This document shows positions 893 through 44,899 of a stretch of 64,000 bases of DNA, in pieces. Numbering within the stretch: position 1 is the first letter of the stretch; each line of letters opens with the position of its first letter. The DNA is taken from NCBI GenBank assembly GCA_002794035.1, contig PCXQ01000001.1:3256-67255 (forward strand), read 5' to 3'. A program made the translations under genes and the position numbers. The notes under the pieces are model-generated. The model saw nothing but the letters and a program-made list of their open reading frames with translations, made no database searches and was not told where the DNA came from. The DNA is from Candidatus Yanofskybacteria bacterium CG10_big_fil_rev_8_21_14_0_10_36_16. GTDB taxonomy: Bacteria > Patescibacteriota > Minisyncoccia > 2-02-FULL-40-12 > IGHO2-01-FULL-4-A.

Positions 893-2362
893 TTACAGTT
901 CATAACTATCTCCATCTTTTGGTACTACAGCATCAACTACTAGAATATCTTTTATTTTGCTTGCAAGAACTTCTGATACTTCTCTTTCCCCTTGAACCAC
1001 AAACACTTTTTTTAATCTATGTTCTCCTTCATCTTTATTTTGTTCATTTTGTCTTTGTGTTGTCTCATTAGAACAGCTTTCATCACTCTCAAGGTAGCTA
1101 TTTGCTGCTTTTACCCAGCGCAAAAGCCCTAGTTGGTCTGCATGTGCTGAATATCCTCCTATGGCCACAATGTTGCAGTTTACAGGGATTTCATTTCCAA
1201 AAATTCTTACAGAATTCGATTTTTTACCGACTTTTCTTTTGTCTTTTATTTCAAGAATTGCTCTGCCTAAGGTTCCTATTACCTGATATCCTACAAAAAG
1301 CATGGTTGATTTTGGATCGGGTAAGTATTTTCTTTCGTGGTGCAATATTCTTCCTCCAACACTCATTCCTGATCCTGCAATTATTATTTTGGGTGGAGGC
1401 ACTTCATTTATTGATTTTGATTCATTTACTGTTCTTGTCATCTTTAGTCCTGGGAAATGGAATATGTCATCTCCTGACTCAATAAGCTCTGATGCTTGTT
1501 TATTAAAGTTTTTCTGGTATTTTCTGTATACTTCTGTGATCTTTATTGCCAACGGGCTGTCAACAAATACAGGAATGCGGGGTATTCTTTTGTTTTCTAT
1601 TAATTCATTTAATTCAAAAAGAAGTTCTTGGGTTCTTTCAACTGCAAACGAGGGAATAATCAGTGCCCCGCCTTCCTTAACTGTATTTTCTACGGCGTCT
1701 TCTAGTTTCCCTTTCCTTAGCTCTCTGTCTTCGTGGACCCTATCACCATAAGCTGACTCTATAACCACATAATCAGCATTTCTGACTAATTCAGTAGGAT
1801 TTAAAAATGGTGTAGGCGGATTTCCTAGATCCCCTGAAAAATATATTCTTTTGTATTTCTCTCCTTCTTTCCACTTTATTTCAATTATAGATGACCCCAA
1901 AATATGTCCTGCGTCATGTAATTGTGCCTCGACATCTCCTTGTAAATCAACCTTTTCGTGGAAATCAAGACTTTGTACTAATTCAAGCATTCCTTTAATA
2001 TCTTTTCCTTCATAAAGAGGAGGATGTCCATCTTCTTTTGCTTCTCTTTCAATATGACTTAAGGAATCTGGCAAAGATGCAGTCATCAAGTCTTTTGCAG
2101 GGGTATTTGCATATATTTTACCTCTAAAGCCGTCTTTGTACAATTTGGGTAAGCGCCCCATATGATCTATGTGGCTGTGGGTTATGAAGACAAAATCTAC
2201 TTGGGAAGGATCATAAGAAAAATCTGCATAATTAAAATCTTCTGCGTATTTACTACCCTGGCTTAGACCGCAATCAATTACTATTTTTTGTCCGGAGTCA
2301 GTTTCAAGCAAATAATTAGCTCCAGTAACCTGACCAGCACCTCCGAAAAATGATAATTTCAT
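893..2362 (-). CDS. MBL-fold beta-CASP family hydrolase (RNA-processing nuclease-like)
   Basis: 489 aa. HSHIDH metallo-beta-lactamase motif near N-terminus; overall CPSF/RNase J-like layout. Confidence 0.8.
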   Translation of the reverse strand: MKLSFFGGAGQVTGANYLLETDSGQKIVIDCGLSQGSKYAEDFNYADFSYDPSQVDFVFITHSHIDHMGRLPKLYKDGFRGKIYANTPAKDLMTASLPDSLSHIEREAKEDGHPPLYEGKDIKGMLELVQSLDFHEKVDLQGDVEAQLHDAGHILGSSIIEIKWKEGEKYKRIYFSGDLGNPPTPFLNPTELVRNADYVVIESAYGDRVHEDRELRKGKLEDAVENTVKEGGALIIPSFAVERTQELLFELNELIENKRIPRIPVFVDSPLAIKITEVYRKYQKNFNKQASELIESGDDIFHFPGLKMTRTVNESKSINEVPPPKIIIAGSGMSVGGRILHHERKYLPDPKSTMLFVGYQVIGTLGRAILEIKDKRKVGKKSNSVRIFGNEIPVNCNIVAIGGYSAHADQLGLLRWVKAANSYLESDESCSNETTQRQNEQNKDEGEHRLKKVFVVQGEREVSEVLASKIKDILVVDAVVPKDGDSYEL

Positions 2363-2413: not shown

Positions 2414-3259
2414 TTAAATTATTATGTAAAAAATTAAGTAACCTATTATACTTAAAGCAGCAATTGGTGGCAGTGCTGCCATTGGCCGTTTTTTATTTTG
2501 GTTCGTGAATATTAGATGTGTTAAGAAAAGCCCCGCAAGTGAAAATATTAATACAATCACTGATCCTGCAAGTGATGTTTTGGCTACAGATGATGTGAGT
2601 ATCAAGGGCATTACTATATCCCCTGAACCTAATATCATAAAATTATCTCCTGGAGTAACGTTGTTTAATCTTTCTGTGACAAGATTTAATTTTGATGGAA
2701 TTACAAAACCAAATATTGCTTTTGATTCAATCATTGCTTTTGCCATGCTAATCATGTGTTTTGTTTTGTAAACAGCTATTATGTCATAAATTGAAAGAAC
2801 AGCTAGTAAAATAACGGCGAACAAAGGCGTCACAGTAAGGCCAAATAAGGCTCCTATTCCTGCAATAGCGATTACCATTACTATATTTTGAATTATAACA
2901 TTATTCCTATATAAAAATAATCCTATTAATACCAAAGAGACAATGAGAGAGATGTAAGGGTTTAGAAATGATCCTAGGGATAGCTGTAAACCGCTAAAGA
3001 CAGCTAGTGTTAAAAATACTTTAAAAAAAATAGTTCCTGCTTTGCCGCCCTTTTTACTAAAAAATATAAAAAGAACTAATATGACTGCCAATATGATTAT
3101 GTCTAAAAGATTAAAGCTTAGCCCTTCAGACATGGCAACTGTTTCTTCTGGGGGTAATGCCAGTAGTTTTAATGTTACGGCTAATCCGAGGATTTGAGTG
3201 GCCAAGAAAGGTATTAATTCTTTTATGTATGAGCCAAGGTTTAGGTTTATATCCTTCAT
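2414..3259 (-). CDS. Presenilin / signal-peptide-peptidase-like intramembrane aspartyl protease (A22-like)
   Basis: 281 aa polytopic membrane protein with YD (SIYDIIAVY), GxGD (LGSGDIVMPL, close to SPP GLGDIVMPG) and a PAL-like AALPP near the C-terminus. Confidence 0.65.
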   Translation of the reverse strand: MKDINLNLGSYIKELIPFLATQILGLAVTLKLLALPPEETVAMSEGLSFNLLDIIILAVILVLFIFFSKKGGKAGTIFFKVFLTLAVFSGLQLSLGSFLNPYISLIVSLVLIGLFLYRNNVIIQNIVMVIAIAGIGALFGLTVTPLFAVILLAVLSIYDIIAVYKTKHMISMAKAMIESKAIFGFVIPSKLNLVTERLNNVTPGDNFMILGSGDIVMPLILTSSVAKTSLAGSVIVLIFSLAGLFLTHLIFTNQNKKRPMAALPPIAALSIIGYLIFYIII

Positions 3260-3322
3260 AAAGGTTAATAATTATTATTATATTTTAACAAATTTAGACA
3301 AATAAATTTAGCATTATAAGTT

Positions 3323-3760
3323 TTATAAGTCTCTTACAATTACTGTACCCCTCTCTAATTCATTATAAAAATTGTGATAACTAAATATTCCTGATTTTGA
3401 AAATCTATAAATGTATGATTCTCCAACCTTGACATCATTTATGCTATCGAGGCCAGAGAGTACTTCCTCGCCGTTATCGCCAATGTCTGAAATAACTCGT
3501 AATGATGTTAGTCCATCGTTTTGAAATTTAACAGTATCGCCTACTCGTATTCTTAGGTTGGTTGGGCTAAAAACTCCTGCCTTATAAAAAACAGAATAAA
3601 TCCTCGGTTTCCTGTTGTTTATTAAAGAGCCATTCGCAGTAACGTTAGTTGTTTGAAGTTGTGAAGTGGTTTCTCCAAAGTGAATTAATGCCAAAATAAA
3701 AACTGCCAGCACTAGCATTATTTCAAACCACATTAATCCATTATTGGATCTTTGTTCCAT
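3323..3760 (-). CDS. Type IV pilin-like N-terminus fused to a small beta-sandwich (cupredoxin-like) domain
   Basis: 145 aa. MEQRSNNG|LMWFEIMLVLAVFILAL resembles a prepilin cleavage site with Glu at +5. C-terminal part resembles a cupredoxin fold (RIRVGDTVKFQNDG), but no clear Cu ligands. Confidence 0.45.
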   Translation of the reverse strand: MEQRSNNGLMWFEIMLVLAVFILALIHFGETTSQLQTTNVTANGSLINNRKPRIYSVFYKAGVFSPTNLRIRVGDTVKFQNDGLTSLRVISDIGDNGEEVLSGLDSINDVKVGESYIYRFSKSGIFSYHNFYNELERGTVIVRDL

Positions 3761-3810
3761 GTAATTATTTTAACACCTACTGCCTGAGTAAGCAAAAAAA
3801 AGCCCCGATA

Positions 3811-4287
3811 TTAATATCGAGGAAGAACATTGTTTATGGTTTTGATCAGATCTACAACTGAATCAGAATGGGTTGTTATGATTTTTATAATGAAGCTGTT
3901 GCACTGTACAACCCGCAGGTCTTGATTAAATGATAGTTTTGGTTGTGTTCTTTTTTTTCTTTTTGCATCCCATCCATTTTCTGCATCACGTAAGAAATTT
4001 TTATCTCTGGTGACTATAAAAAATTTAGTTTTCGGAGTTATTAGTTTAGGAGGAGTATGGGTTAGTTTCCATATAAAATCTAGAATTACTTGAAAGTCAG
4101 ATAAGTGGAGAAAGCTAAGCTCACCGGAATGTCGAAAGATTAGTGGATTAGGAGATCTCAAACGATGGCGGCACATGTATTCTTTGTTGTTTCGGCAACT
4201 GTTCGTACATGGTTTGAGTCTAGATGCACATGCATCAAAATATAATACTAAATCATAAGGTTGCTTTTTCTTTCCCCTGTTCCTCAA
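3811..4287 (-). CDS. Hypothetical protein, weak PIN-like signature
   Basis: 158 aa. TTG start preceded by AAGGAG at about 8 nt. YDLVLYFDAC and FFIVTRDKNFL resemble PIN N- and C-terminal acidic motifs. Confidence 0.35.
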   Translation of the reverse strand: MRNRGKKKQPYDLVLYFDACASRLKPCTNSCRNNKEYMCRHRLRSPNPLIFRHSGELSFLHLSDFQVILDFIWKLTHTPPKLITPKTKFFIVTRDKNFLRDAENGWDAKRKKRTQPKLSFNQDLRVVQCNSFIIKIITTHSDSVVDLIKTINNVLPRY

Positions 4288-4331: not shown

Positions 4332-5570
4332 TCAATATTTAAGAAACTCTTCAACCACAGCCTTGTCAGACCACTGAATCTTCTTGTTATTTGATACTGC
4401 CATGGATGTTTCAGACCCTTTGCCTGTTATTATTACTGTATCGTCTTTTTTTGCTAGCGATAAAGCTTTTTTGATCGCATCTTGTCTGTTTATTATTAAA
4501 TTATAACCATTGTTCAAATTTGAAAAACCCGACACAATTTCTTGCAAAATTTCCTCAGGATTTTCATCGTAGGGATCCTCGTTTGTAAGTACGATTTCAT
4601 CACAATATTTTTCGGCAATGCGTCCAAAAGAGGATCTCTTCCATTTGTCTCTCCCTCCTCCTGCAGCTCCAAGTACACAAACAAGTTTAGAATTGTCCTT
4701 TTTGAGGGTCTGATAAACTTTTTCTAAACTGTCTGGTGTATGGGCGTAATCAACAACAACATCAAACGGTTGTCCCTTTTTTATGAATTCCATTCTACCG
4801 GGAACCTTTTCTATTTTTTCAAGTTCATTTTTCGCTTCTTTTGGGTTAATGCCATATGCTTTCGAGATGGCTAGTGCTGCCAGACCATTATAAATATTAA
4901 AATTGCCAACAAGTTTTAATTTGAGCTCAGTGTCTTTTTGATTGACATCTCCTTCTTGCATCCCGAAGGTTATTTTTTGGTCTGATTTAATTTCAATGAA
5001 GTCTTTAGATTGTTTGTCATCTATGTTTATTATATGTATAGCGTTTGTCTTAAAAAATAATTTTTGCTTTGCTTGCAAATAGTTTTCAAATGAGCCATGA
5101 CTCTCAATGTGTTCTTTGTGTATTCCTGTGAAAACAGCACAATTTACATTTATGCCTGCAAGACGATTTTGGGCCAGTCCCTCAGAAGTTGCTTCAAGTA
5201 TTACATATTTTGCTCCTGATTTTTTTGCATTATATAAAAATTTTTGCAACTTCATTCTGCCCGGCATCGTCATCTTTAGAGAGTTTGGCCATGTTTTATC
5301 CTTTATTTTAAAACCAAGTGATCCAATTGATGCGACGGGAATTCCAGCTTTTTCAAATATTCTTGTTGTCATATATACAACAGTTGACTTACCTTTTGTG
5401 CCGGTTACCGCTATTATTTTAAGGTTTTTTGAAGGAAATCCATAAAATATTCCTCCTAGTATAGATAAAAATCCATGGTAATATGGCTGAGTAAATTTAA
5501 ATATTGATCTAGGAATTAACTTACGTCCAATATCTAAAACCTTATTTAAGATATATAATTCTTTAAACAT
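4332..5570 (-). CDS. murE: Mur ligase, MurE-like (UDP-MurNAc-L-Ala-D-Glu:diamino acid ligase)
   Basis: 412 aa. P-loop VTGTKGKST, DYAHTPDSLEKV and NEDPYDENP motifs typical of MurE. Short N-terminal domain. Confidence 0.8.
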   Translation of the reverse strand: MFKELYILNKVLDIGRKLIPRSIFKFTQPYYHGFLSILGGIFYGFPSKNLKIIAVTGTKGKSTVVYMTTRIFEKAGIPVASIGSLGFKIKDKTWPNSLKMTMPGRMKLQKFLYNAKKSGAKYVILEATSEGLAQNRLAGINVNCAVFTGIHKEHIESHGSFENYLQAKQKLFFKTNAIHIINIDDKQSKDFIEIKSDQKITFGMQEGDVNQKDTELKLKLVGNFNIYNGLAALAISKAYGINPKEAKNELEKIEKVPGRMEFIKKGQPFDVVVDYAHTPDSLEKVYQTLKKDNSKLVCVLGAAGGGRDKWKRSSFGRIAEKYCDEIVLTNEDPYDENPEEILQEIVSGFSNLNNGYNLIINRQDAIKKALSLAKKDDTVIITGKGSETSMAVSNNKKIQWSDKAVVEEFLKY

Positions 5571-26438: not shown

Positions 26439-28874
26439 TTATTGAATAGAGTAAATATATTTTAGTACAGCATTAGCTACTCTTTCTAGACTTTGGGCAC
26501 TACATTTATCAAGCGTATCGCCTGTGGTATGAAATGGCGGATAGTTAAAATCAATTACTAAAAAGCTTGGTATGCCAGCATTGTTAAGCGGTGTGTGGTC
26601 GTCTCTTATTGTTTGTTCCACTTTATCACCAAAAGATTCATTACTTATGTTTTTCGCTATATTCCAAAAGAATTCTACTTGTTTTGGAGCGTTTTTAACT
26701 GATGATTCTTCTTTATATATTTTTAAGTTTTTATCGCATACCATATCAAGAACAAGTGCAGATGTTGGTTTGTTGTTTTTGTATGTACCATTTAAGTGTT
26801 CCGAAAAATATGTAGAGCCAAGGGGTACCCAGTTTCTGTAATTGCCGTTTTGTTTTATGTCCCCTTCCTCCCCATCAAAGAAAACTATATCAATACCAAT
26901 ACTCGGTATTTTGTTGTTATTGTTTAATATCCTTGCAATCTCTACAAGAACGGATACTCCTGAGGCTGAATCATTAGCTCCCGGTACCGGCTTGTCTTTA
27001 TGCATTAAGTCTAAATCGGCAAACTCTTTGCTGTCATAATGTGTTGCCAAGATAAGGCGTTTTTCTTTGTTTGGATAAAAACGGCCGATAATATTCATTA
27101 ATCCATAATTGTTTTTATCCTTATCTTCGTGGTTCCACGATTGTATTATTGTTTCGTGGGCCAGTTCTTTTATTTCAGCATTTAAAAAATCCTGGGTTTT
27201 TTTGTGGCCGGTAGATCCTATATAACGTGGCGCATAGCTTAGTTGTTGTTCTATTGTGGCCAGCATTTCGTCGCCATCGACTAGTTCGGGTTCATTAAAT
27301 GTTCGCTGTATGATGTCTGCTGTCATATAATCAACCGGGGCATAATTATCTGTAAGTATTGGATATAAATCTAAATTATATCTATCAAGGTTAATTAATT
27401 TATCCCCCATCGAACTGATTATGGGGTTTTTGTTTTGTAAAATTTGATTGGCACTTAGATCAATTTGCTTATCGCTGTTATGTCCTACAAAAATAATATT
27501 TTGTGAACCTGTTTTATTTGGGTTTTCGGTTGCAAAAAAGTAGCTGTTAGGAAAAACGCTTCTGAATGTTCTTATTTCCGAAAAAATAAGAGAAGGTTTT
27601 TGTCTTGATAAATTGCCAATCAAATTAGCTATAAATACGCCATTATCAGATAGTTTTTCTTTTGCTGTAATAAAAAATTCCTGCGTGGTGAAGTGAGCAG
27701 GAATGGAAAAAAGTGAATAATACACGTCGCTGAATATCAAGTCATATTTTTTATTAGAATCTCGCAGTAATCGCCGGCCATCCTCGGTGTAGTTATGAAA
27801 ATTGAGATTGTCTTTAAGATCGAAATATTGTTTAGCAAGATTGAAAAGCGATGGTTCTATTTCAGAAATATCAATTGTTGCATTTGGTAATTCTGCAGAA
27901 AGTGCTTTTGGTATAGAATATGCACCGCCTCCTATGACTAAGGCATTTTTGACTTCAGGATTGAATATTTTGTACAGAGAGTAGTATCTGGTGTAGTTAT
28001 ATACCAAATCAGTGGGGTCATTTGAATCAAGAAACATTGCCCCCGATAAACTTTTGTCCTGCTTGAAAACTCTTATTGGTCTTCCTCCGCTTAAGGTGTC
28101 AAAAATGGTTATATTTTCATATATGCCATCTTTGCTGTATAAAACATCTGCTTTAGTTTGGTTAATGATAAAAATGGTGGCCCCGGTTAAAGATATAACT
28201 GCAACAATAGATTTTATTATCCACTTTTTATTAATTCCTAAAAAAACAAGTGGTATAAAACCTAATAAAAATAGAGCTATTCCTGTGCCAATGAAAATAT
28301 AATCAATACCAAAATTTGGTATAAGAACAAATCCTGCAAGCAAGCTTCCCAGAATACTACCAAGTGTAGACCAAAAAAACACTTTGCCTGATATGCTGCC
28401 GATACCCTGTTCGGGCACTTGGACGCTTTGTAATTTTATTGCGTAAGGCGATAGCGTGCCCAACAGAAGAGCTGGTATAAGAAAAAGCAACAAAGAGGAA
28501 ATCAGAGGCCCAGTTATAAGAGAAAAATTGACGCTTAAAATCGGTAAAATTATAGCACCTATAAAATGTATAGTAATAACTAGCAAGCCACTGACAAGAA
28601 TTATTCCAAAAAACCACCTTAATACAGGATATTTGTCGGCAAATTTACCGCCTATGTAATATCCAATGCTTAAAGCTGCCAATATAACGCTTATAACACT
28701 TGATACGGTAAAAATAGTATTGCCATAATGAGGAGACAAAACACGTACAGCAACAACCTCAATGATTAATACGCAAGCTCCTGTAATAAAAACAGAAAGT
28801 GGGAGTAAATTTTGTTTTAGGAATTTATTCATGTATCTTGTTGTAATTGTAACAGGTTGCAAATATTTGCTCAA
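26439..28874 (-). CDS. Fusion protein: polytopic membrane domain + spermidine-synthase-like domain + M28 peptidase / glutaminyl-cyclase-like domain
   Basis: 811 aa. N-terminal multi-TM region, Rossmann-like ALVIGGGAYSIP and DLIFSDVY, C-terminal HYDS...GANDSASG...FFDGEE zinc-peptidase motifs. Confidence 0.75.
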   Translation of the reverse strand: MSKYLQPVTITTRYMNKFLKQNLLPLSVFITGACVLIIEVVAVRVLSPHYGNTIFTVSSVISVILAALSIGYYIGGKFADKYPVLRWFFGIILVSGLLVITIHFIGAIILPILSVNFSLITGPLISSLLLFLIPALLLGTLSPYAIKLQSVQVPEQGIGSISGKVFFWSTLGSILGSLLAGFVLIPNFGIDYIFIGTGIALFLLGFIPLVFLGINKKWIIKSIVAVISLTGATIFIINQTKADVLYSKDGIYENITIFDTLSGGRPIRVFKQDKSLSGAMFLDSNDPTDLVYNYTRYYSLYKIFNPEVKNALVIGGGAYSIPKALSAELPNATIDISEIEPSLFNLAKQYFDLKDNLNFHNYTEDGRRLLRDSNKKYDLIFSDVYYSLFSIPAHFTTQEFFITAKEKLSDNGVFIANLIGNLSRQKPSLIFSEIRTFRSVFPNSYFFATENPNKTGSQNIIFVGHNSDKQIDLSANQILQNKNPIISSMGDKLINLDRYNLDLYPILTDNYAPVDYMTADIIQRTFNEPELVDGDEMLATIEQQLSYAPRYIGSTGHKKTQDFLNAEIKELAHETIIQSWNHEDKDKNNYGLMNIIGRFYPNKEKRLILATHYDSKEFADLDLMHKDKPVPGANDSASGVSVLVEIARILNNNNKIPSIGIDIVFFDGEEGDIKQNGNYRNWVPLGSTYFSEHLNGTYKNNKPTSALVLDMVCDKNLKIYKEESSVKNAPKQVEFFWNIAKNISNESFGDKVEQTIRDDHTPLNNAGIPSFLVIDFNYPPFHTTGDTLDKCSAQSLERVANAVLKYIYSIQ

Positions 28875-32671: not shown

Positions 32672-33718
32672 TTATTTCTTTAACATTTTTTCAGCAAGCG
32701 CTTTTAGGGCTTCTTCGCCTTCTACGCCGCGGAGGCGGCCGGCAAGAAAGCCGAGTTTGTAATTTATATCATCGGCTATTAAACGCCAATTTGTGTCAGC
32801 TAAGGTTTTTTTGAGTAACCTGCGAAGATCATATACACTACTCCGATCTTGCCGACCGGGTTTATTATCCTGCAATGAAAAACCCACGGTTAAATCCCGC
32901 CCTGCTTCCGGCTTATCAAAATCAAGTTTAGAATACCCAGCTTTTTTAATAGCGGGGTTGAGGTGATTCTGTAGTTCTACAATGGTAAGTTTTTTAATTT
33001 TAGCAACAGCATCATAAATCTCCTTGTTCTCCTCGTGGTCTTTCATCCATTCCGCTATTTCTTTAAGGTTGGCAGTCCATGAAATGTAATCCGTACCCTC
33101 TTTGTCAGATATACAATATTTTCTTCTATTTGCCTCAAAGTTTGGATCAACCTCTTCTCTCTTGTCTAAATCCCAGGTATCAGTTTCTTTCTGGCCACAC
33201 CCCGGACAATTATAAGCTGTCGTTATGATATTACCCTTCCGGTTATGGACGGATGTTCTATTCGCATGGCACTTAGGACAAGGGTTTTTATATTCCCACT
33301 CTTGACCGTTTTCCCAGTAAGCACGTCGGCTATTACAGTTACTGCAGTCAAAGAAAAAGAGAACCCTGTCGTTTTTATCATTAATATCGGTATGTAAGTC
33401 TTTAGATTCTACTTGCATTAAATGGCTACAACTAAGGCAGCGGATTCCTTTCGGCTCAATGGCGTTATTAATCCTATCGTCTTTGTCCTGATCGCGTTCC
33501 ATCCATTTATGTATGGTTTCTGATTTATTTCTATATCGCTCTCCTTTTTTGAAATATAGGCCAATTTCTGTAAAAGCACCGGTTATTGAGCCGGCTTTTT
33601 TATACTTATCTCTTGAAGAGATATGATTCACAGAGTTAACCCATTCTTCGCATTCTTTAATGGTTAGGCGGTCATAAAGTTCGTGATAATAACTTTCGTC
33701 TTTTAGATACTTATACAT
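32672..33718 (-). CDS. Hypothetical protein with four CxxC pairs (two zinc ribbons)
   Basis: 348 aa. CLSC, CSNC, CPKC, CPGC in the central region. 3 nt downstream of the NERD gene. Confidence 0.6.
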   Translation of the reverse strand: MYKYLKDESYYHELYDRLTIKECEEWVNSVNHISSRDKYKKAGSITGAFTEIGLYFKKGERYRNKSETIHKWMERDQDKDDRINNAIEPKGIRCLSCSHLMQVESKDLHTDINDKNDRVLFFFDCSNCNSRRAYWENGQEWEYKNPCPKCHANRTSVHNRKGNIITTAYNCPGCGQKETDTWDLDKREEVDPNFEANRRKYCISDKEGTDYISWTANLKEIAEWMKDHEENKEIYDAVAKIKKLTIVELQNHLNPAIKKAGYSKLDFDKPEAGRDLTVGFSLQDNKPGRQDRSSVYDLRRLLKKTLADTNWRLIADDINYKLGFLAGRLRGVEGEEALKALAEKMLKK

Positions 33719-33721
33719 TTA

Positions 33722-34366
33722 TTAAGAATCGTTTAATCTTTTGAGGCCCTTGGCGCTTTCAATATGTGACCTCCGGCTCTTTTTGTCCTTTATATCGGCG
33801 TTTTTGATAATGCTACAAATCTCGTCCCTTTCACTGTCAGACAATACCAAATCAGTATATTGTCTGATTTTTTCTACAGTATCCCTGCCATTACCGACTG
33901 TATCCGTACCAGTAATTTTAAGCTTATCCGCAGACGGGAAAATTATAAATGAATAAATGGGAGTATTTTGAAATCGCGGCTTTATTAGTGCCTCTATTGC
34001 TTTGGTGTGGGCGTAATTTTGCCTTAATGGATTATAGAATCTGCTCTTTCGTCTATAAATAACTTGGGTCCAGTATTGATCGCTGGCTTTACCGAAAATC
34101 CATCCAGAATAATCTTTCGTTTCAATGCAAAAAATTCCAAATCTTGAAACTATGATGTGATCAATTTGAGTTGTGCTTGTATTGCCGGTTGAAGGCAACA
34201 AAACGTCGCTTAGATTTATATACTGTTTAGGATCCAGCCCTGTCAGTTTTTTGTTTACAAATCTTTCGCCTAGCCAACCTTTCCATTGCGGAAACTTATA
34301 TTTAACCCACTGAACAATGAGATAAAGAAATCCAAACCAAATTAGTAAATATATAATGTTTTTCAA
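33722..34366 (-). CDS. Membrane-anchored NERD (nuclease-related domain) protein
   Basis: 214 aa. N-terminal TM helix, then GERFVNKKL...QIDHIIVSRFGIFCIETKDYSGWIFG...WTQ pattern typical of NERD. Confidence 0.8.
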   Translation of the reverse strand: MKNIIYLLIWFGFLYLIVQWVKYKFPQWKGWLGERFVNKKLTGLDPKQYINLSDVLLPSTGNTSTTQIDHIIVSRFGIFCIETKDYSGWIFGKASDQYWTQVIYRRKSRFYNPLRQNYAHTKAIEALIKPRFQNTPIYSFIIFPSADKLKITGTDTVGNGRDTVEKIRQYTDLVLSDSERDEICSIIKNADIKDKKSRRSHIESAKGLKRLNDS

Positions 34367-34389
34367 TTTATAGTTATTGATGTATTTAG

Positions 34390-35724
34390 TTAGAAGGCAT
34401 GTCGCTCATTTTTTGTGATTTTTTGTAAAAACATTTTTTGTTGTTTTTTCTTTTGTAACCAACCCAACTTACACAAATCAGTTACTACTGACTGGGATAT
34501 TTTATATAGTTGTTTATCTAAATCAATCACCGTATTATCAACTTGTAATGCCAAATCATTCAAGCCCATTAATTTGATACCATTTAGTGTTCTAACGCGG
34601 GATAGAGCCACATAACCCATCCCGTAAGTAAATGACTTGCTAAGGTCAATTTCTGCAGCGTCTAAGCTCATCCCTTGGCTCTTGTGGACCGTAATAGCCC
34701 AAGCAAGCCGCAGGGGTACTTGGCTTATCTCCGCTTTTATAAGGTCATTTTCTTCAACGGTCCAACTTGTTGGCCGAGCTGCCACTTCTTTGCCTTTAAT
34801 TGTTTTGATAATAGGATAACTATCACCATCAAAATCAATTACTTTGCCCAATGTTCCATTAACATATCCTTTATCAAAATTGTTCTTTACAAACATTACT
34901 ACGGCATCCTTTTTTAAGGTAAGCTCTTCCGGAGCCAAGCAGCCTTTTTTCAATGATTCTACAAGATATTTTTCACCCCTGCATTGCATTTTATAAGTTT
35001 TTGGTTCGCTTTCAATTTTATTAAGTTCAAAGTTATTAATTGCATCCACATCAACATTATGAGTATAAAGTTTGGTAGGAGTTATATTAGTAACGGCCGG
35101 TTTGTTAAACCGGCTTGTTAAAAGACCAAGTGATGTGTCAGATGTTTTGCCAGCTCTTATATCATTTAACACATTAAGAAAATTAAGATCTTGTTGCCGG
35201 TATTGTTCTGTCAGATAGCAAATCTTTATATTCATGTTCTCCCAAGCTTTAGATGTGTGTATAAAACTATCATCTTCACCATTTTTTGATACTGGCGGTA
35301 ATTGAAAAAAGTCTCCGGATAAAATTACCTGCAAACCGCCAAATGGCAAATCATTTTTCTTAAACGCTTTGCAAACCTTATCTACCATGTCTAATCGGAA
35401 TGAGTGAAGCATTGAAACCTCGTCTATTATTAAAACTTTTGTTTTTAGGAATCTTGCTCGGAAGTTAATATTTTTAAGTAACTTTGATAAATGATCATCG
35501 GTAATCTCGTTTTGTATTCCTAATCCCGCCCAAGAGTGTATTGTCCGGCCATTCATATGAGTTGCGGCAATGCCGGTTGAGGCGGTTATACCAACGCCAA
35601 TATTTTTCCCTTTCAGAAAGTTGATATACTTGTTTAATAAAAAAGTTTTCCCGCTTCCAGCGGGACCAGTTAGATACACATTATGTCCAAGTTTTAATAT
35701 ATCTAAAGCTTCCTGTTGGGTCAT
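34390..35724 (-). CDS. SF1 helicase, PIF1/RecD-like
   Basis: 444 aa. GPAGSGKTF, TIHSWAGLG, LIIDEVSM, GDFFQLPPV, ITVHKSQGMSLD. Confidence 0.85.
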   Translation of the reverse strand: MTQQEALDILKLGHNVYLTGPAGSGKTFLLNKYINFLKGKNIGVGITASTGIAATHMNGRTIHSWAGLGIQNEITDDHLSKLLKNINFRARFLKTKVLIIDEVSMLHSFRLDMVDKVCKAFKKNDLPFGGLQVILSGDFFQLPPVSKNGEDDSFIHTSKAWENMNIKICYLTEQYRQQDLNFLNVLNDIRAGKTSDTSLGLLTSRFNKPAVTNITPTKLYTHNVDVDAINNFELNKIESEPKTYKMQCRGEKYLVESLKKGCLAPEELTLKKDAVVMFVKNNFDKGYVNGTLGKVIDFDGDSYPIIKTIKGKEVAARPTSWTVEENDLIKAEISQVPLRLAWAITVHKSQGMSLDAAEIDLSKSFTYGMGYVALSRVRTLNGIKLMGLNDLALQVDNTVIDLDKQLYKISQSVVTDLCKLGWLQKKKQQKMFLQKITKNERHAF

Positions 35725-35743
35725 AAATTAAAAACTTAAAAAC

Positions 35744-37531
35744 TTAAAAACTTTGATAATACTCCCTTATCATATTAGCCATTAATTTTTGTCTTTCTTC
35801 CAGAAATTTTTGATAATCAGTAACTTCCATATCTAACACACTTACTGGTATGGCATTTTCTTTCAAGTTGTTTTCAAGCTCATTCTTGTCTTTAATGCCA
35901 CTGTATTTGAAAACCCCATTTTCAAGATGTTCCAATATTTCAGTAAAGTATTGTTTGGGTGATTTTGCTCCGATTTTGATATTAATTTCACTTTGTGTGT
36001 AGGCAAAATTGGCTATTTGGTTGTAATCTCTCTGTTTTAGCTTGTTGCTTTCAAGATATTTTTTGGGAAATATATGGTGTATATCTCCACGATGTATAAT
36101 CATATCTCGTACTTTTATATCAGTGGAAAGAAAACCTCTTTTTCCTAATTTTACTTGTGCTGCCCAAAAAAGTTTTAAGTACGGACTGGATATACTAGAT
36201 TTAACTAAATCGCGCACCAGACCTTCTGACCAGAATGTATCTGATAATTCAGCCCTCTCTATTCCTTCAAGATATTTTTCAGCACGCTGCTCAACGATGT
36301 TTCTTATATCTGTATCAAATTGGCTTTCGGGAGACCCAGAGTATCTTCCTATTAGCAGCGACATTATGAGCCACTTGCTAACTATACGCTCTATTTCAGA
36401 ATCATTGTATTCTTGTGATCTCAATTTGAGATATAAAATATAAGCAAAGTTTAAAGCATTTTTTGAACGAATTAACCCGCTTACTTCAAACCCCGCTGCC
36501 TTAACTATCATAGAAAAGCGTTCATAATGAGTTTTGTTTACAAAATCTAATACGCCGTTTTTTAATTTATTATAAGAATCCTCAACGATGGCTTCTTCGT
36601 AAGCCCTTGTTTCAAAGTTTCTACCAGATAGTAAACTTACCAAATCCCTCAACCTTCCGCGATTAAACTCTTTAGTAAAGCCAACCCTAATAATATCGGT
36701 ATAATCTGGTTGATAAATGTCATCCTGCAAGTTTTTGGCCCAAAGTATTTTTTGATAATATTCTGTATTAGTAAAGTCATCACTGGCGGATTTAATATTT
36801 TCAATAAACTCCGGATGTCGCAGAGTATGCGCAAAGTAATCTATTGCTTTTCTTAGATTTATCCCAAAATCTCCAAATGCTGCGATTCGTGACATTGCAA
36901 AGTCGGCCTGACTTAACACAACCCCCTCGGAGTTAATCCTGATAAATATTTCAGTAACCGTTTCTATATCAAGATTTTCTTTTAACTCTATAAATCCGAG
37001 CTGCTTATCTTTGATAGAATAAAGCTTGTCAATGTTGTTTTGAATGGTTTGTAAGTCTGCTTTTGGATTTCTTTTTTTGTATTCGTCTACAAGCGCAAAA
37101 ATACCTCCCTCATTTTTCAAAAACTCCGAAATATCACCAATCCAATTAACATCTTTTTCAATCGCGGGTGTTAATGTTTCAAACTTTTCCTCAATGGGAT
37201 TGAAGGCAATCCTGATTCTCATTTTTCTATATTCCTTGTCTAAAACTTCTTCTCCGAGAATGGCTGCTCTTAGTGCCGTAATTCGCTGCTGTCCGTCTAT
37301 AACAATTTTTTTACCGGATGATAAACTGCCATCTTTTAGACGAATAGATGGGTTACGCCATACAATTATGTAGCCAACAGGAAAGCCTTTATAGATAGAA
37401 TCCATCAAATCCCTCACTTTAATTGAACTCCACACAAAGGGTCGTTGAATCTCTGGTATAGCAATTTCATTGGACTGAACCCAGCTTAAAATGTCTTTAA
37501 TAAAATATTGATTTATAATGTATTGTTGCAT
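35744..37531 (-). CDS. DUF262/DUF1524 protein (GmrSD-like Type IV restriction family)
   Basis: Start moved to MQQYIINQ, 4 nt after the res stop. EIQRPFVW and IDGQQR (ParB-like NTPase) N-terminal; HRGDIHHIFPKKYL His-Me finger C-terminal. Confidence 0.85.
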   Translation of the reverse strand: MQQYIINQYFIKDILSWVQSNEIAIPEIQRPFVWSSIKVRDLMDSIYKGFPVGYIIVWRNPSIRLKDGSLSSGKKIVIDGQQRITALRAAILGEEVLDKEYRKMRIRIAFNPIEEKFETLTPAIEKDVNWIGDISEFLKNEGGIFALVDEYKKRNPKADLQTIQNNIDKLYSIKDKQLGFIELKENLDIETVTEIFIRINSEGVVLSQADFAMSRIAAFGDFGINLRKAIDYFAHTLRHPEFIENIKSASDDFTNTEYYQKILWAKNLQDDIYQPDYTDIIRVGFTKEFNRGRLRDLVSLLSGRNFETRAYEEAIVEDSYNKLKNGVLDFVNKTHYERFSMIVKAAGFEVSGLIRSKNALNFAYILYLKLRSQEYNDSEIERIVSKWLIMSLLIGRYSGSPESQFDTDIRNIVEQRAEKYLEGIERAELSDTFWSEGLVRDLVKSSISSPYLKLFWAAQVKLGKRGFLSTDIKVRDMIIHRGDIHHIFPKKYLESNKLKQRDYNQIANFAYTQSEINIKIGAKSPKQYFTEILEHLENGVFKYSGIKDKNELENNLKENAIPVSVLDMEVTDYQKFLEERQKLMANMIREYYQSF

Positions 37532-37535
37532 AAAT

Positions 37536-40217
37536 CTATTTTTCCCAAAGTCGGGCCGCTTCATCAAAGCTTTTCGGCTTCTGTGATAGCTTATCCCAAT
37601 CTTCTTGTTTAATATAAAGCATTTTGTATTTAACGTCGTTCTGAATACTATTAACATCTTTTATCCATTGTTCCAAGCGTTTTATTTTCTCAACATCGTC
37701 TAAGTCTTCGCGGCCTTTGGTTTCTATGATGTACACTTCTTTTTCTGAAACCTTTACGAAAAAGTCCGGGTAGTAATTTGAAATATCACCACTGGCATTT
37801 CGGTAATCAATCCTAAAATTAACTGCGAAGTAGTTTTTAGCATAAGAAATTATATCTTCCACTCCATCAAGAAAACCGGCAAACTCAAGTTCAAAATGCC
37901 CATCTCCAACTATTTTATTAAATGCGCTTTTCTTCGGTACAAGATATGCTTGATCCTTCACGACAAATGGTCGGCTCTTACTAATCTTAATATAATTTTG
38001 GATCTCGGCCTCGCCCTTATCTACCACGGTCAATTCGTTTATCTTCTTCTTAAATGTTTCTGTTACTGTTTTGCTGGCTTCAAGCTCTGACAAATTACGC
38101 AAAGCATTAAGATCGTCCAACTGTATTTTTTTATCAAAAAGGTTGTTTTCAATAAACTCTTTTACTTGGCCGTATAGAATATCATAACCGCTAAATAACC
38201 GAAGCTCTTTCATAATAACATTGGTAAAATACCCTATAACACTTTGGTAATCTGGTATGAAATTACTATCTAACTCTGTCTTGTGAGTTATATCACCGCT
38301 GGTAATATCCCTGAATATAATTTCGCGCTTTTCTTCTTCTGAAAACTCCTTTAATTTAACTTTCTTGTGACCAAATGTTGAAACATCAAGGTCTGAAAGG
38401 TTTTTATATTCCCGATAAATACGCGGTGTAAGAATGGGTATTTGAATATCTAACCTCGGTATATCTTTTTTGGTGTTTTCATTATCAACCTCAACAACCA
38501 AAGGAGCTTTAGGTTCTGTGCCTTCTCCCATTTTTCTGTGCTCAAGCTCAACACCTTCACTTTTAATAGATTCCACAAAATCCATAAAAGCATCTGTGCC
38601 CACTACACTAACTAATTCCGGCACTTCTTCGTTGCGATACATTCGTCTTAACCCTCTTCCAAGTGTTTGTTCTGGCAATATGTTGCTCTTTGAAGAATAA
38701 GGCCGCAATCCAACAATGGTTGTAACATTACGGACATCCCAACCTTCTTTAAGCATTAACACGGAAACTATGGCCTTATAAGGATTATCAAAATTATCAA
38801 TCTTGTTTGCTGCTTCCCGCAGCTTTTTTAATTCCTCCTCATTTTTCCCAGTTGCGCTTTCGGATATTTCACCGTTATTTTTTGTATGAATTACTAATAC
38901 AGAGTTTTTAAACTCCGGATAAGTATTTTCAAGATATTCAGCAACTTCATCACCGTTCTTAGTATCGTCGGTCATTAAAAACAAAACTGCTTTTTTGCCC
39001 AGTTTTATATGTTCATCATAAACCTTTTTCCACTCCAAATAACCGAGATGGACATAGTCCTTGTATTTCTCACTGAACTTTGAACTTTTATGCTCTTGTA
39101 GCTTGGCTCGGCTTGCAGAATCGGGCAGGACCGGACGCTTTACTACGTTTTGGTGAATGGCTTCAACCAATGGGTAATCGCTTATTGTTTGAACAAATAT
39201 AGCTCCGTTATTATGTCTTGGGGTAGCTGTTACATCAATTTGTAAAGATAATTCTTTGCCTTTCATCTTGAGACGATTGTGTATATCTTCTATGGACTTA
39301 AACCACGCTAAACGGCCATCGTGGATATGGTGCGCTTCATCATTTAGTACAACCAGCTCATCTATATCTCTAACTATTACCCCAAGATCAACTTTTGATT
39401 CATTTGTTGCGCCAACTGGTTTTTCGCCAAGAAAATATCGGGCCGTGTTTTCATCTTCAAAACTCGCAGCACTGCTATTACTCTCATAAACCCGATGAAT
39501 GTTAGTTAGAAAAATGTTTCCAGTTTTTTTAACTACACCTATTTCGTCTTGAATATGCAAAGTTAATTGAAAATCATCCCGCCAATTTTGGCCTGCAAAA
39601 CCATTATCCGGAAGTACCGGGTCTTCAAAAAATATCTTTAAGCCGTCAAAATCAGACCTGATACGGTCTAAAACAATAATGTTGGGGGTGATAACCAAAA
39701 AGTTTCGGGCTAATTTTGAATCCTCTTCATAAAGTTTATGAAAGAAGCTCCAAGCAAGAAGTAAACTTAACACCTTTGTCTTGCCGCTTCCGGTTGCCAT
39801 TTTTATTACGAAACGTAACCAGGATTCTTCAAACATTCCTGCTGAAACTGCTCCGGAACTATCAAATCTTATAAGGTCGTATTTATCTTTTACTTTTGCT
39901 ACTTCGTGGAGATAAATGGTTGTTTCTACTGCTTCTCTCTGTCCAAAATAGTATTGAAAAAGAAAGGTCTCTCCATCTGTATTTTCTCTTGGGTGGTCTA
40001 TTTTAAACCACCATTTAAGTAACGCTTTACTTGTTTCACTTGCCCCTTCATAATCAGCATCTCGCCATTCTTTGACCTTCCTACGAAGTTGATCCACTAA
40101 AGGCGGTAAAAGCCGAGCATAGCCCTGTTCTCTTAATGTCTCGTCTGCCGGAAACCACCGGAGGTCCGGGTTTAAAATCTCGTGAGGTGATTGTGGAAAC
40201 TTAGGGTGTAGTGCCAT
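37536..40217 (-). CDS. res: Type III restriction enzyme Res subunit
   Basis: 893 aa. MATGSGKTKV, LNDEAHH (DEAH), helicase C motifs, C-terminal YYPDFFV...YIIETKG PD-ExK nuclease. Confidence 0.9.
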   Translation of the reverse strand: MALHPKFPQSPHEILNPDLRWFPADETLREQGYARLLPPLVDQLRRKVKEWRDADYEGASETSKALLKWWFKIDHPRENTDGETFLFQYYFGQREAVETTIYLHEVAKVKDKYDLIRFDSSGAVSAGMFEESWLRFVIKMATGSGKTKVLSLLLAWSFFHKLYEEDSKLARNFLVITPNIIVLDRIRSDFDGLKIFFEDPVLPDNGFAGQNWRDDFQLTLHIQDEIGVVKKTGNIFLTNIHRVYESNSSAASFEDENTARYFLGEKPVGATNESKVDLGVIVRDIDELVVLNDEAHHIHDGRLAWFKSIEDIHNRLKMKGKELSLQIDVTATPRHNNGAIFVQTISDYPLVEAIHQNVVKRPVLPDSASRAKLQEHKSSKFSEKYKDYVHLGYLEWKKVYDEHIKLGKKAVLFLMTDDTKNGDEVAEYLENTYPEFKNSVLVIHTKNNGEISESATGKNEEELKKLREAANKIDNFDNPYKAIVSVLMLKEGWDVRNVTTIVGLRPYSSKSNILPEQTLGRGLRRMYRNEEVPELVSVVGTDAFMDFVESIKSEGVELEHRKMGEGTEPKAPLVVEVDNENTKKDIPRLDIQIPILTPRIYREYKNLSDLDVSTFGHKKVKLKEFSEEEKREIIFRDITSGDITHKTELDSNFIPDYQSVIGYFTNVIMKELRLFSGYDILYGQVKEFIENNLFDKKIQLDDLNALRNLSELEASKTVTETFKKKINELTVVDKGEAEIQNYIKISKSRPFVVKDQAYLVPKKSAFNKIVGDGHFELEFAGFLDGVEDIISYAKNYFAVNFRIDYRNASGDISNYYPDFFVKVSEKEVYIIETKGREDLDDVEKIKRLEQWIKDVNSIQNDVKYKMLYIKQEDWDKLSQKPKSFDEAARLWEK

Positions 40218-40218
40218 A

Positions 40219-40614
40219 TTAGGTCAATCTGTAGATATATGCGTCTTTAATAAAAATACCGTTAATGATGTTTGATTTAAATCTAATACCTGCTTTTGAC
40301 TGTTTTGATGTTTTTATCATTGTTCTCAAAAGTTTCAGAAAGTCATTATCGTGATGAAGTATTGTTATATTTGAAAGTCCGATGTCTTTTACTGTTTTTT
40401 CTTCCCCGAATTGATTGATGAAATCATTATAATTTTGCCGCGTATTTTTAATACGGTCATATTTTTTTGATGAAATTAATAATCTCCAAGCATCTGACTC
40501 GGGAACAAGTATCCAAAGAAAAACCGTTGGATTTATTTTTTGTTTATCCATCAAATCTAATAAGGTTTTTCCACTTTCAATTTTTGGTTCTTCTACCATA
40601 ATTTTTTTATCCAA
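40219..40614 (-). CDS. 131-aa orphan protein paired with HEPN (no nucleotidyltransferase motif)
   Basis: Overlaps the HEPN gene by 22 nt and ends 1 nt before the res start. No GSx10DxD MNT signature. Confidence 0.55.
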   Translation of the reverse strand: MDKKIMVEEPKIESGKTLLDLMDKQKINPTVFLWILVPESDAWRLLISSKKYDRIKNTRQNYNDFINQFGEEKTVKDIGLSNITILHHDNDFLKLLRTMIKTSKQSKAGIRFKSNIINGIFIKDAYIYRLT

Positions 40615-41030
40615 ACTAAAATACCCTTACGCCTATCTTTTATTGAGTTGATTAAAGCTTCTGCGTCAGTTTTCTTGCATATTCCATATCTGCTTTCTTC
40701 GGTCCAATCTTTAACCGTGCTCCAATTTGACTCAAAGCCCTTATCTTTGCCTGCTCTCTTATCAAAGGCCCACTTGATACCACTTACACTCAATAAGTCG
40801 TTTAAATCGTGACTATAGAGTTTCTGATAAACACTCTTTTTTGGAGGGAAGCTCTTTTCTTTGACATTTTTGCAATAGCAAGCCTTGAGGGCAAGTTCAA
40901 CGGCATAACCTGCTAAATAGTAAGCACCACTATACTCCTTATTATTAAAAAGGGTTATCGCTTCTCTGATGCGCCTCAATGCTAACTTTTTAAAATCACC
41001 GTATTCTGGATTGTCCCAAAATAAAGCCAT
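40593..41030 (-). CDS. HEPN domain protein
   Basis: 145 aa. AYYLAGYAVELALKAC...SHDLNDLL...EESRYG pattern of HEPN (PF05168-like). Confidence 0.7.
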   Translation of the reverse strand: MALFWDNPEYGDFKKLALRRIREAITLFNNKEYSGAYYLAGYAVELALKACYCKNVKEKSFPPKKSVYQKLYSHDLNDLLSVSGIKWAFDKRAGKDKGFESNWSTVKDWTEESRYGICKKTDAEALINSIKDRRKGILVWIKKLW

Positions 41031-41033
41031 ACT

Positions 41034-43283: not shown

Positions 43284-43371
43284 GGGCCATAGTAAGATAA
43301 CTTTTACTTAAAGGGTATCACTTTTGTGCTGTTTTTTAAAGGTCTGAAAAAGAGCGTTGAGGGCGTTGACA

Positions 43372-43785
43372 CTAAACGAGAAATTGAGCGACAAACCAGA
43401 TGCCGGCAGTAATTAAAAACCATATCAACTGATTGGCTTCCCTAAAATCTCCGGAGCGGTAGTAGCGGCCAACTTGGGTTACGGTAAATATCGCGGCAGT
43501 CATCGGGATAAAGTTAAATGGAATATCAAATCTAAAGGACACGAGATAATATACGATTATTAAAGCTACCGCTTCGGAAAAACCCGAAAAGCGTGATTTT
43601 AAAATATCGCTATGTTTATCTAACAACCCTTTGAATGGGGCATAAATGAACATAGCAATAATTGGACTAATGGCTGCGATATAAAACAATGAGAATAAGG
43701 CCCATAAGAATGGCAAAAATATAAAAGAAGAAATAATAACTATACCCCATAGCAGTAAACTAATTTTTGATTTTATTACATCCAT
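43372..43785 (-). CDS. Small four-helix membrane protein, unknown function
   Basis: Start moved to MDVIKSKISLLLWG (137 aa). 88 nt upstream of mod on the same strand. Confidence 0.55.
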   Translation of the reverse strand: MDVIKSKISLLLWGIVIISSFIFLPFLWALFSLFYIAAISPIIAMFIYAPFKGLLDKHSDILKSRFSGFSEAVALIIVYYLVSFRFDIPFNFIPMTAAIFTVTQVGRYYRSGDFREANQLIWFLITAGIWFVAQFLV

Positions 43786-43810
43786 AAAATTACAAAACCC
43801 GCCGCTAGGC

Positions 43811-43897
43811 GATGGATTTCTCCACCTGTTACCCTTTCGGGTAACAACCACTGCTGGTGCTCCTAAACGACGGGTTTAGTACCCAGCAGTGGTTTTT
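43811..43897. promoter_or_regulatory. Cluster of GC-rich hairpins (candidate structured leader or small RNA)
   Basis: gatgga-tttc-tccacc, gttaccc-tttc-gggtaac (GAAA loops on the minus strand), and a 10-bp stem ccactgctgg/ccagcagtgg enclosing ctaaac-gacgg-gtttag, then TTTTT. Confidence 0.4.
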
Positions 43898-44012
43898 ACG
43901 TCATACCTCAAATGTTGACATTTTGAGGGTTAGGCAATTTTTAGTTGTTAGACCAATATTATCACAAAACCTTGAAAATCTCCATAATTTTCGTTTTACT
44001 TAAATTAATACT

Positions 44013-44768: not shown

Positions 44769-44899
44769 TAAGTTATCTCTCAATTTCTTGTGGACAGCCA
44801 AATATCGGCTGTCTTTTTTTCTTTTTTTACTTGGTTTTAGCGGCCAAAGAGATAAACGGAGAAATTAAAAGATATTAAATATTGATTCAAAATTAAATT

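Follow-up and report, generated by a model that had tools for sequence, protein, structure and literature searches.

Presenilin-family proteases have been studied almost entirely in eukaryotes and in one archaeal model enzyme. This enzyme, PSH (MCMJR1) of Methanoculleus marisnigri, is represented by the structures 4hyc, 4hyg and 4y6k and belongs to Pfam family PF06550 and MEROPS family A22. To our knowledge and in the papers that could be searched, PSH has no known natural substrate, nor is a native substrate known for any prokaryotic PSH. The signal peptide peptidases (SPP/SPPL, PF04258) are marked by the local motif GLGDIV.PG. Prepilin peptidases (PilD/FlaK, family A24) are likewise GxGD aspartyl proteases; they are polytopic prokaryotic enzymes whose cleavage site lies close to the cytoplasmic end of a membrane helix at the N-terminus of the substrate. 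Presenilin acts on type I and SPP on type II substrates, the two enzymes having opposite orientations in the membrane, and archaeal PSH needs no homologues of accessory subunits (PMC2947513). In the literature searched, we found no paper on presenilin homologues of the CPR or on a link between cupredoxins and presenilins. A 2026 preprint describes a novel CPR pilus, which is unrelated to the gene pair treated here.

The locus described here belongs to a bacterium of the Patescibacteria/CPR with a very small genome, related to Yanofskybacteria, and was found in the window, i.e. the whole 64-kb stretch of DNA that was analysed. The ORF calls place both genes of the pair where the original prediction had them, on the same strand and with a 63-nt gap between them. 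The upstream gene encodes a single-pass membrane protein, termed CUP in the following, and the downstream gene the protease. Coordinates of both genes and of their parts are listed in Table 1.

Table 1. Features of the CUP/protease locus (positions are those of the window).
Feature	Position	Strand	Basis
PSH-type (presenilin/SPP, MEROPS A22) intramembrane aspartyl protease gene, 281 aa	2414..3259	-	ORF, Pfam, PDB, AF2/Foldseek
Spacer between CUP and protease genes, 63 nt; ORF-S absent at this position	3260..3322	-	sequence, terminator scan
CUP gene, 145-aa single-pass membrane protein	3323..3760	-	ORF, homologue alignment, AF2 model, cupredoxin fold matches
CUP cupredoxin-fold ectodomain codons, residues 54-143	3332..3601	-	pLDDT >90, Foldseek
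CUP membrane-anchor codons, residues ~9-29, LMWFEIMLVLAVFILALIHFG	3674..3736	-	helix 7-35 in model; Trp11 invariant, Glu12 non-conserved
GC-rich, terminator-like hairpin with subsequent T-run, immediately ahead of the CUP start	3803..3822	-	consensus scan only

The assignment of the 281-aa protein to family A22 was borne out by Pfam, by its PDB match, by invariant motifs and by a nine-helix model. It matches PF06550 with 91.1 bits (cut-off 23.9, E = 1.1e-25) and, partially, PF04258 (Peptidase_A22B) with 34.8 bits (cut-off 23.3, E = 1.9e-8), and its best PDB sequence match is PSH (4hyc, E = 3.4e-20). The YD motif (Y158-D159, Asp159 codon at 2783-2785) is located at the end of helix 145-166 (TM6), and the GxGD motif (L-G-S-G-D214, Asp214 codon at 2618-2620) at the start of helix 212-226 (TM7); in the AF2 model, a 45-residue loop joins the two helices. 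A PAL-type motif, P-M-A-A-L-P-P at 259-265 (AALPP 261-265), precedes TM9, and this region aligns with Q-A-G-L-P-P of PSH. YD, GSGD and AALPP were invariant when 30 protease homologues were aligned. The AF2 model (pLDDT 91.8) has nine long helices, and its top Foldseek matches are the PSH structures 4y6k, 4hyg and 4hyc (E ~1e-6, TM-score 0.6-0.7), followed by presenilin-1 and SPPL2a. With matches this far above chance, the protein is a genuine member of the presenilin/SPP (A22) family and closest to archaeal PSH. With 104.4 bits it stays under the cut-off of 125 of the NCBIfam PSH equivalog model NF041679, and by this measure is a divergent bacterial branch and not an equivalog of the archaeal enzyme. 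In NCBI records, the relatives from the CPR are called "presenilin family intramembrane aspartyl protease", and the term "PSH" does not appear in this name.

PSH (301 aa) and the window protease (281 aa) are alike in length; both carry the YD and GxGD aspartates on neighbouring helices linked by a long loop, and the sequence xLPP before the last helix. They differ in that the window protease has a bacterial host, shares only ~22-23% identity with PSH over the fold alignment, carries GSGD instead of GMGD, and is encoded behind a cupredoxin-like gene in a conserved block, whereas the archaeal genes examined lack this gene. With regard to SPP, the window sequence GSGDIVMP comes close to the SPP-type motif, and Foldseek matched the model to SPPL2a as well; by analogy with SPP, the enzyme may act without partner subunits. 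However, its match to the SPP profile is weaker than that to the PSH profile, and its predicted orientation is opposite to that of SPP and presenilin-like (PMC2947513). The comparison with PilD and FlaK, which the original prediction had also called for, gave neither a profile nor a fold match: Peptidase_A24 was not matched in Pfam at E <= 0.1, and FlaK or PilD chains were absent from the 83 Foldseek matches of the protease. Helix number and arrangement differ as well.

The predicted orientation derives from the distribution of Lys and Arg residues, counted from the sequence with the helices of the AF2 model, which is 16 versus 2 between the two membrane faces. The TM6-7 loop contains five and the TM8-9 loop three such residues, while the TM1-2 loop has none, but three acidic residues. 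This points to a presenilin-like orientation with the N-terminus and the large TM6-7 loop inside and the C-terminus outside. Such an orientation predicts clients of the N-out/C-in (type I-like) kind, and the type II preference of SPP is not simply transferable, because the predicted orientation is the opposite one. By analogy with the family, the enzyme would be catalytically competent: Asp159 in TM6 and Asp214 in TM7 would face each other in a water-accessible intramembrane cavity and would jointly hydrolyse the transmembrane helices of single-pass proteins entering laterally.

CUP starts with a short N-terminal tail and a transmembrane helix, which are followed by a Pro/Ser/Thr linker without ordered structure and by a C-terminal cupredoxin beta-sandwich. 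In its AF2 model (pLDDT 84 overall, above 90 for the beta-sandwich 54-143), helix 7-35 is followed by a disordered stretch (33-47) and then by the sandwich. By sequence, the likeness to cupredoxins is weak: plastocyanin and amicyanin were hit with E-values of 1e-4 to 1e-2, and Pfam Cupredoxin_1 (PF13473) with 15.4 bits at a cut-off of 27 (E = 0.02). Since the window protein is sub-threshold, while a precomputed PF13473 match exists for 8 of 17 close homologues, we regard the CUP family as a divergent relative of Cupredoxin_1. The predicted structure confirms the likeness, as the Foldseek matches are exclusively cupredoxins, with 5fc9 (the purple cupredoxin of Nitrosopumilus) at E = 2.9e-8 and a target-normalised TM-score of 0.79, and amicyanin/plastocyanin at 0.7-0.8 (E ~3e-8). 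CUP shares with the blue copper proteins (amicyanin, plastocyanin, 5fc9 and 4hcf of Bacillus anthracis) the Greek-key beta-sandwich, ~20-26% identity and a conserved core F-S-P-x-x-L-x-I-x-x-G-D-x-V. Unlike these, it is predicted to be anchored by an uncleaved N-terminal helix with a P/S/T stalk, and its copper ligands are replaced. Arg88, Asn130, Asn133 and Glu136 occupy what was once the copper site. Of 132 CUP-family domains, 95% have Asn at the position of the Cys ligand and none has Cys there; a Cys anywhere in the domain is found in fewer than 1%, and the His and Met ligand positions are mostly Arg and Glu. Because the copper site became Arg/Asn/Glu, CUP is not a blue copper protein, and a function as type 1 copper protein was rejected on this family-wide replacement. 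A family of membrane-anchored cupredoxins without copper is by itself of minor interest.

The N-terminal flank of the CUP helix contains on average 2.9 Lys and Arg residues, the C-terminal flank 1.1, and the N-terminal flank has the larger number in 118 of 146 homologues; CUP is thus predicted to be a signal anchor with N-in/C-out topology. The original prediction had taken CUP for a pilin-like protein with a cupredoxin-like domain, of which the cupredoxin fold stood the Foldseek comparison and the pilin part did not. Literally, the motif is there: the N-terminus reads MEQRSNNG-LMWFE, with Glu at +5. Yet among 130 distinct homologous N-termini, Glu occurs at this position in 2, whereas the Gly ahead of the helix is found in 71% and Trp11 in 100%. 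The prepilin look of G-LMWFE arose by chance in this single sequence. CUP had no N_methyl or pilin match in Pfam or NCBIfam, and its model does not show a pilin fold, in which a long alpha-1 helix would lie against a beta-sheet. CUP is not pilin-like, and its reading as a prepilin or pilin was rejected on motif non-conservation, profiles and fold. Neither a canonical PilD nor type IV pilus genes were detected within the 64-kb window (Pfam, ~55 ORFs).

The adjacency of the two genes is conserved in many related genomes, so that the missing conservation which the original prediction had named as refuting was not observed. Of about 150 informative loci, 129 have CUP and protease genes side by side in the same orientation, where all such counts refer to presence at the locus and an absent partner may lie elsewhere in the same genome. 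In about half of the loci, a third gene for a small membrane protein (ORF-S) lies between them. The surroundings are cytoplasmic housekeeping genes of the syntenic block RuvA-FemAB-MurE ... beta-CASP, among which CUP, ORF-S and protease stand out as three membrane-protein genes specific to the lineage; beta-CASP follows downstream in 69 and MurE precedes upstream in 64 of 81 loci. Start and stop codons of CUP and protease overlap as ATGA in 12 loci and as TAATG in 2. Such junctions are typical of translational coupling, by which the two genes would be linked in some of the relatives. The pair stays together and overlapping where both flanks differ (L058, L068), or where the downstream flank differs (L011, L027, L029, L039). 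On the other hand, 14 loci have CUP(-ORF-S)-beta-CASP without the protease, two to three have MurE-PSH-beta-CASP without CUP (among them L021 and L056), and the protease gene also occurs without CUP in other contexts, namely behind an FtsQ-POTRA gene in L033 and L037 and flanked by secY and adk in L079. In this lineage, the two genes are often found as a pair, but the pairing is not obligatory.

In the window, CUP and protease are probably co-transcribed. No terminator-like hairpin was found in a scan of the 63-nt spacer between them, and the one just upstream of CUP weakly suggests that the two genes start a transcription unit apart from MurE and a 158-aa ORF. This hairpin is weak evidence, because terminator-like sites are no more common in the region than expected by chance in the consensus scan. 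Promoter matches were not above shuffled expectation either.

Taken together, we hold it for reasonably probable that the locus encodes a competent PSH-type protease next to CUP as a separate surface protein, and that their adjacency is mainly lineage-specific synteny and does not mark an obligate enzyme-substrate pair. CUP would then expose its cupredoxin-fold ectodomain on a Pro/Ser/Thr stalk, held by the N-in/C-out signal anchor. The likeliest job of the protease would be the general clearance of membrane proteins or transmembrane stubs, or the regulated cleavage of other clients; a housekeeping role is the default here and not a demonstrated function.

The strongest competitor, to which we give a smaller but appreciable chance, is a dedicated module in which CUP (and ORF-S in the relatives) serves the protease as its specific client. 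As a substrate, CUP would have its membrane anchor cleaved, and the ectodomain would thereby be set free or inactivated. As a non-catalytic partner, CUP might gate or regulate the protease, in loose analogy to nicastrin, the single-pass ectodomain subunit of gamma-secretase. The same-strand adjacency in most loci, the 14 start/stop overlaps, the persistence of the pair in altered contexts, the restriction of all three membrane proteins to this lineage and the position of the hairpin ahead of CUP, with none between the genes, speak for such a module. Against it, both genes also occur independently, within the same block as well as, for the protease, elsewhere, and the synteny reaches out to unrelated housekeeping genes. 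Moreover, both proteins are predicted to be N-in, a pairing that does not suit intramembrane cleavage under the rule of type I substrates for presenilin and type II for SPP (PMC2947513). The substrate-protease link of the original prediction, for which the conserved adjacency still speaks, is weakened by the wider syntenic block, by independent occurrence and by predicted orientations that deviate from this rule.

Co-evolution does little to change this balance. In a mirror-tree analysis, the partial correlation between CUP and protease was 0.23, small but above permutation (p ~0.007) and thus weakly positive for a dedicated module, whereas CUP-MurE reached 0.63 and protease-beta-CASP 0.62. 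With the residual so far below that with flanking housekeeping genes, we discarded mirror-tree co-evolution as support for the pair. A deep association of PSH with cupredoxins was rejected too, and this likewise counts against the module: in Methanoculleus, Methanofollis and a Methanomicrobiaceae genome, three PSH loci from the single archaeal order Methanomicrobiales, no cupredoxin neighbour was found, and the PSH genes examined sit alone between AF_1457-family and NOG1-GTPase genes.

A role like that of eukaryotic SPP, in which the protease would remove signal peptides remaining in the membrane after secretion and its neighbour would be irrelevant, appears improbable to us. The Pfam family name and the partial Peptidase_A22B match would fit such a role, as would the gene position in L079, a distant relative from the Patescibacteria, where secY and adk are part of a ribosomal-protein/secretion operon; in addition, halophilic archaeal homologues have been put forward as SPP candidates (PMC8305020). 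However, cleaved signal peptides are N-in (type II), while the predicted protease orientation favours N-out clients (PMC2947513). Finally, the original idea of an SPP-like enzyme serving as a prepilin-peptidase-like maturase, which removes a class III leader after Gly8 of CUP, can draw on the Glu at +5 in the window sequence, on the fairly conserved Pro-Gly just ahead of the membrane helix and on the GxGD type shared with prepilin peptidases, but appears close to refuted by the missing conservation of the motif and of other class III leader features in CUP, and with a disordered linker between helix and sandwich, cupredoxins as the only fold matches, neither a pilin profile for CUP nor an A24 profile or fold for the protease, and a window devoid of type IV pilus genes, we deem it highly improbable.

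A clear presenilin homologue, which NCBI records already annotate as such, is encoded throughout a large clade of ultra-small bacteria, and its gene is usually preceded by one or two genes for lineage-specific single-pass membrane proteins. CUP and ORF-S might be its native clients, a prospect we consider rather unlikely; they would then be the first natural prokaryotic substrates of the presenilin family, or minimal gamma-secretase-like partners with a gating beta-sandwich ectodomain. If the neighbours are clients, the presenilin family would gain a natural enzyme-substrate or enzyme-partner pair that is simple and can be tested. Otherwise, the protease would be an ordinary family member within a conserved gene block.

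The 281-aa protease matched Pfam PF06550 (SPP, presenilin aspartyl protease; E = 1.1e-25) and, as a second family, PF04258 (E = 1.9e-8). Against the NCBIfam PSH model it scored 104 bits, which is below the equivalog cut-off of 125 bits. Among solved structures, only the Methanoculleus PSH is related to it by sequence (E = 3.4e-20). All of 30 homologues (43-57% identity) keep D159 (YD), D214 (LGSGD) and MAALPP unchanged. AlphaFold2 gave a confident model (pLDDT 91.8) with nine long helices, which has PSH (4y6k, 4hyg, 4hyc) as its best PDB match, next presenilin-1 in gamma-secretase and next SPPL2a; prepilin and preflagellin peptidases were absent among these fold matches. Profile, PDB, motif and model evidence therefore identify the protein as a presenilin/SPP family member, as the original prediction had it, in a bacterial branch nearest to archaeal PSH. 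At database level the family is not new in these bacteria: there are hundreds of relatives, and those in MAGs of Paceibacterota, Yanofskybacteria and Parcubacteria carry the NCBI name 'presenilin family intramembrane aspartyl protease'. A sequence count against the model helices placed 16 Lys and Arg residues on one face versus 2 on the other; of the loops, TM6-7 and TM8-9 are basic and TM1-2 is acidic. This charge pattern points to the orientation of presenilin, with the N-terminus and large loop predicted inside and the C-terminus outside. On one metagenome contig, two tandem presenilin-homologue genes (249 and 179 bits) follow a cupredoxin-like gene.

Apart from a defence/mobile island, the window (G+C ~35%) carries housekeeping genes of the kind usual in reduced genomes. 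Upstream of the protease gene lies that of a membrane-anchored cupredoxin-fold protein (CUP); the coordinates, intergenic gap and motifs reported earlier for the pair were all correct. An identical copy of the locus is present on JGI metagenome contig Ga0066639_10002660. The 158-aa ORF, which has many Cys, His, Lys and Arg residues and is followed by the hairpin, is a gene call on the JGI contig and keeps its position in 19 related loci.

Features of the window and of related loci (L numbers, own coordinates)
Feature	Coordinates	Strand	Remark
Mur-ligase gene	4332-5570	-	first in minus-strand gene order
158-aa ORF	3811-4287	-	TTG start; without family match
Terminator-like hairpin	3822-3803	-	between 158-aa and 145-aa ORFs
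CUP, 145-aa ORF	3323-3760	-	
CUP cupredoxin domain, with residues 88, 130, 136	3332-3601		ex-copper-site positions
Spacer	3260-3322		63 nt between CUP and protease ORFs; ORF-S absent
Protease, 281-aa ORF	2414-3259	-	
beta-CASP/metallo-beta-lactamase RNase gene	893-2362	-	last in order
811-aa fusion	26439-28874	-	unusual; spermidine-synthase-like domain and C-terminal M28 peptidase domain
Defence/mobile island	~33700-49700		NERD nuclease, PIF1-like helicase, GmrSD, HEPN, ResIII helicase with TnsA-like endonuclease domain, N6/N4 DNA methylase, CHC2 zinc-finger primase-like protein, large serine recombinase
ORF-S examples	L003:3869-4153, L004:5708-5998, L036:5706-5984		
Weak second cupredoxin-like paralogue	L033:11653-12123, L039:12036-12608		54 bits to CUP profile
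Tandem presenilin homologues	L153:468-2129		

At sequence level CUP resembles plastocyanin, amicyanin and Cupredoxin_1 only weakly. In the predicted model, a helix (residues 7-35) and a disordered stretch (33-47) precede a beta-sandwich (54-143, pLDDT > 90), for which Foldseek returned cupredoxins only (best: Nitrosopumilus purple cupredoxin 5fc9, amicyanin and plastocyanin; target-normalised TM-scores 0.7-0.8), so that the proposed cupredoxin-like domain is borne out at the level of fold. The copper site, judged by 132 distinct family members, is gone: Asn replaces the Cys in 95% and none retains it, Arg stands in for the first His in 74%, Met has given way to Glu (80%) or Gln (20%), and less than 1% contain any cysteine at all. 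An Arg/Glu pair at the former site, with Asn at the Cys position, occurs in 76 of the 132 homologues, and a minority have His and/or Gln there; the pair could form a salt bridge in place of the metal, or a subclade could hold another metal site. Lys and Arg average 2.9 in the 15-residue stretch preceding the membrane helix versus 1.1 after it (146 homologues), and Pro, Ser and Thr abound in the stalk that follows. CUP is thus predicted to be an N-in/C-out signal-anchor protein whose copper-less cupredoxin domain is displayed on the outside of the cell. In one sublineage, the weak second paralogue is found ~5.6-6 kb downstream of the protease gene; of its two loci, one belongs to those without an upstream CUP gene.

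The suggestion that CUP carries a prepilin-like cleavage motif did not hold. Its N-terminus reads NNG-LMWFE, and the Glu occurs in only two of 130 distinct CUP N-termini, that of the window protein and that of its nearest relative; what is conserved is a Pro-Gly ahead of the helix (Gly in 71%) and, where the helix starts, a Trp that never varies. No pilin profile of Pfam or NCBIfam matched, the disordered stalk and cupredoxin fold are unlike a pilin, within the 64-kb window there is neither a prepilin peptidase gene nor a pilus gene, and we rejected this reading.

With a single genome taken for each species, the protease profile found 80 loci, all in Patescibacteria MAGs; gene calls in these and the other related loci come from our own ORF scripts. 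Of these 80, 73 have a CUP gene directly upstream and in the same orientation. The adjacency is thus strikingly conserved, and its lack would have counted against the original proposal. Searching metagenomes with the CUP profile added another 80 loci; in the pooled set of 161, window included, which combines two possibly overlapping samples, each biased toward its search gene, 47 have the CUP-protease order of the window and 82 the order CUP-ORF-S-protease. ORF-S is a single-pass protein of ~93 aa without a Pfam match, encoded between the two genes in roughly half of the loci. Its N-terminus reads M-[RK]-N-P-L-T-x-x-[IV]-E-S, and its C-terminal part bears the motif G-Y-R-Y-x-I-x-x-Y-P-[DS]-[KR]-P-W.

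Conserved adjacency is no proof of a functional pair. That CUP and ORF-S are specific clients of the protease, as substrate or partner, we consider possible yet rather unlikely. Besides the conserved adjacency, the gene junctions speak for it: the protease ATG overlaps the CUP TGA (ATGA) in 12 loci and two more have TAATG, which suggests translational coupling, and the overlapping pair is kept in loci with a change of both flanking genes (L058, L068) or of the downstream gene (L011, L027, L029, L039). On the other hand, the synteny spans a whole neighbourhood, RuvA-FemAB-MurE-(x)-CUP-(ORF-S)-(protease)-beta-CASP, with beta-CASP downstream in 69/81 loci and MurE upstream in 64/81, and every gene combination was found within this block. 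Absence here refers to the locus, not the whole genome: ten loci have CUP, ORF-S and beta-CASP without the protease (e.g. L097, L106, L125, L145), ORF-S staying with CUP; four have CUP-beta-CASP (L111, L136, L141, L159); the protease occurs without CUP between MurE and beta-CASP (L021), after MurE with another downstream gene (L056), and, outside this block, after an FtsQ-type POTRA gene (L033, L037). In a distant Patescibacteria MAG (L079:4507-7473), the presenilin-homologue gene (33% identical) is flanked by secY and adk, in a ribosomal-protein/secretion operon without a cupredoxin-like neighbour, and none of three archaeal PSH loci examined has a cupredoxin neighbour.

A mirror-tree test on 52 loci also weighs against specific clients. 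The partial r was only 0.23 for CUP with protease, compared with 0.63 for CUP with MurE and 0.62 for protease with beta-CASP. By these distances CUP tracks MurE and the protease tracks beta-CASP, both far above the coupling of MurE with beta-CASP (0.08), a pattern suggesting that recombination or replacement has often had its boundary between the CUP and protease genes. Finally, presenilin, which is N-in, cleaves type I proteins, and SPP, of inverted topology, type II ones (PMC2947513); the protease, CUP and ORF-S are all predicted N-in, which would be the wrong combination for classical intramembrane cleavage. Signal-peptide clearance by the protease appears very improbable, and so does pilin maturation.

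Our literature search found no paper on presenilin homologues of CPR bacteria or on a cupredoxin link. The picture that we favour, with moderate confidence, is that of a predicted-active PSH-type protease, probably co-transcribed with an unrelated or loosely related surface protein whose likeness to pilins would be accidental, their adjacency largely reflecting lineage-wide synteny.
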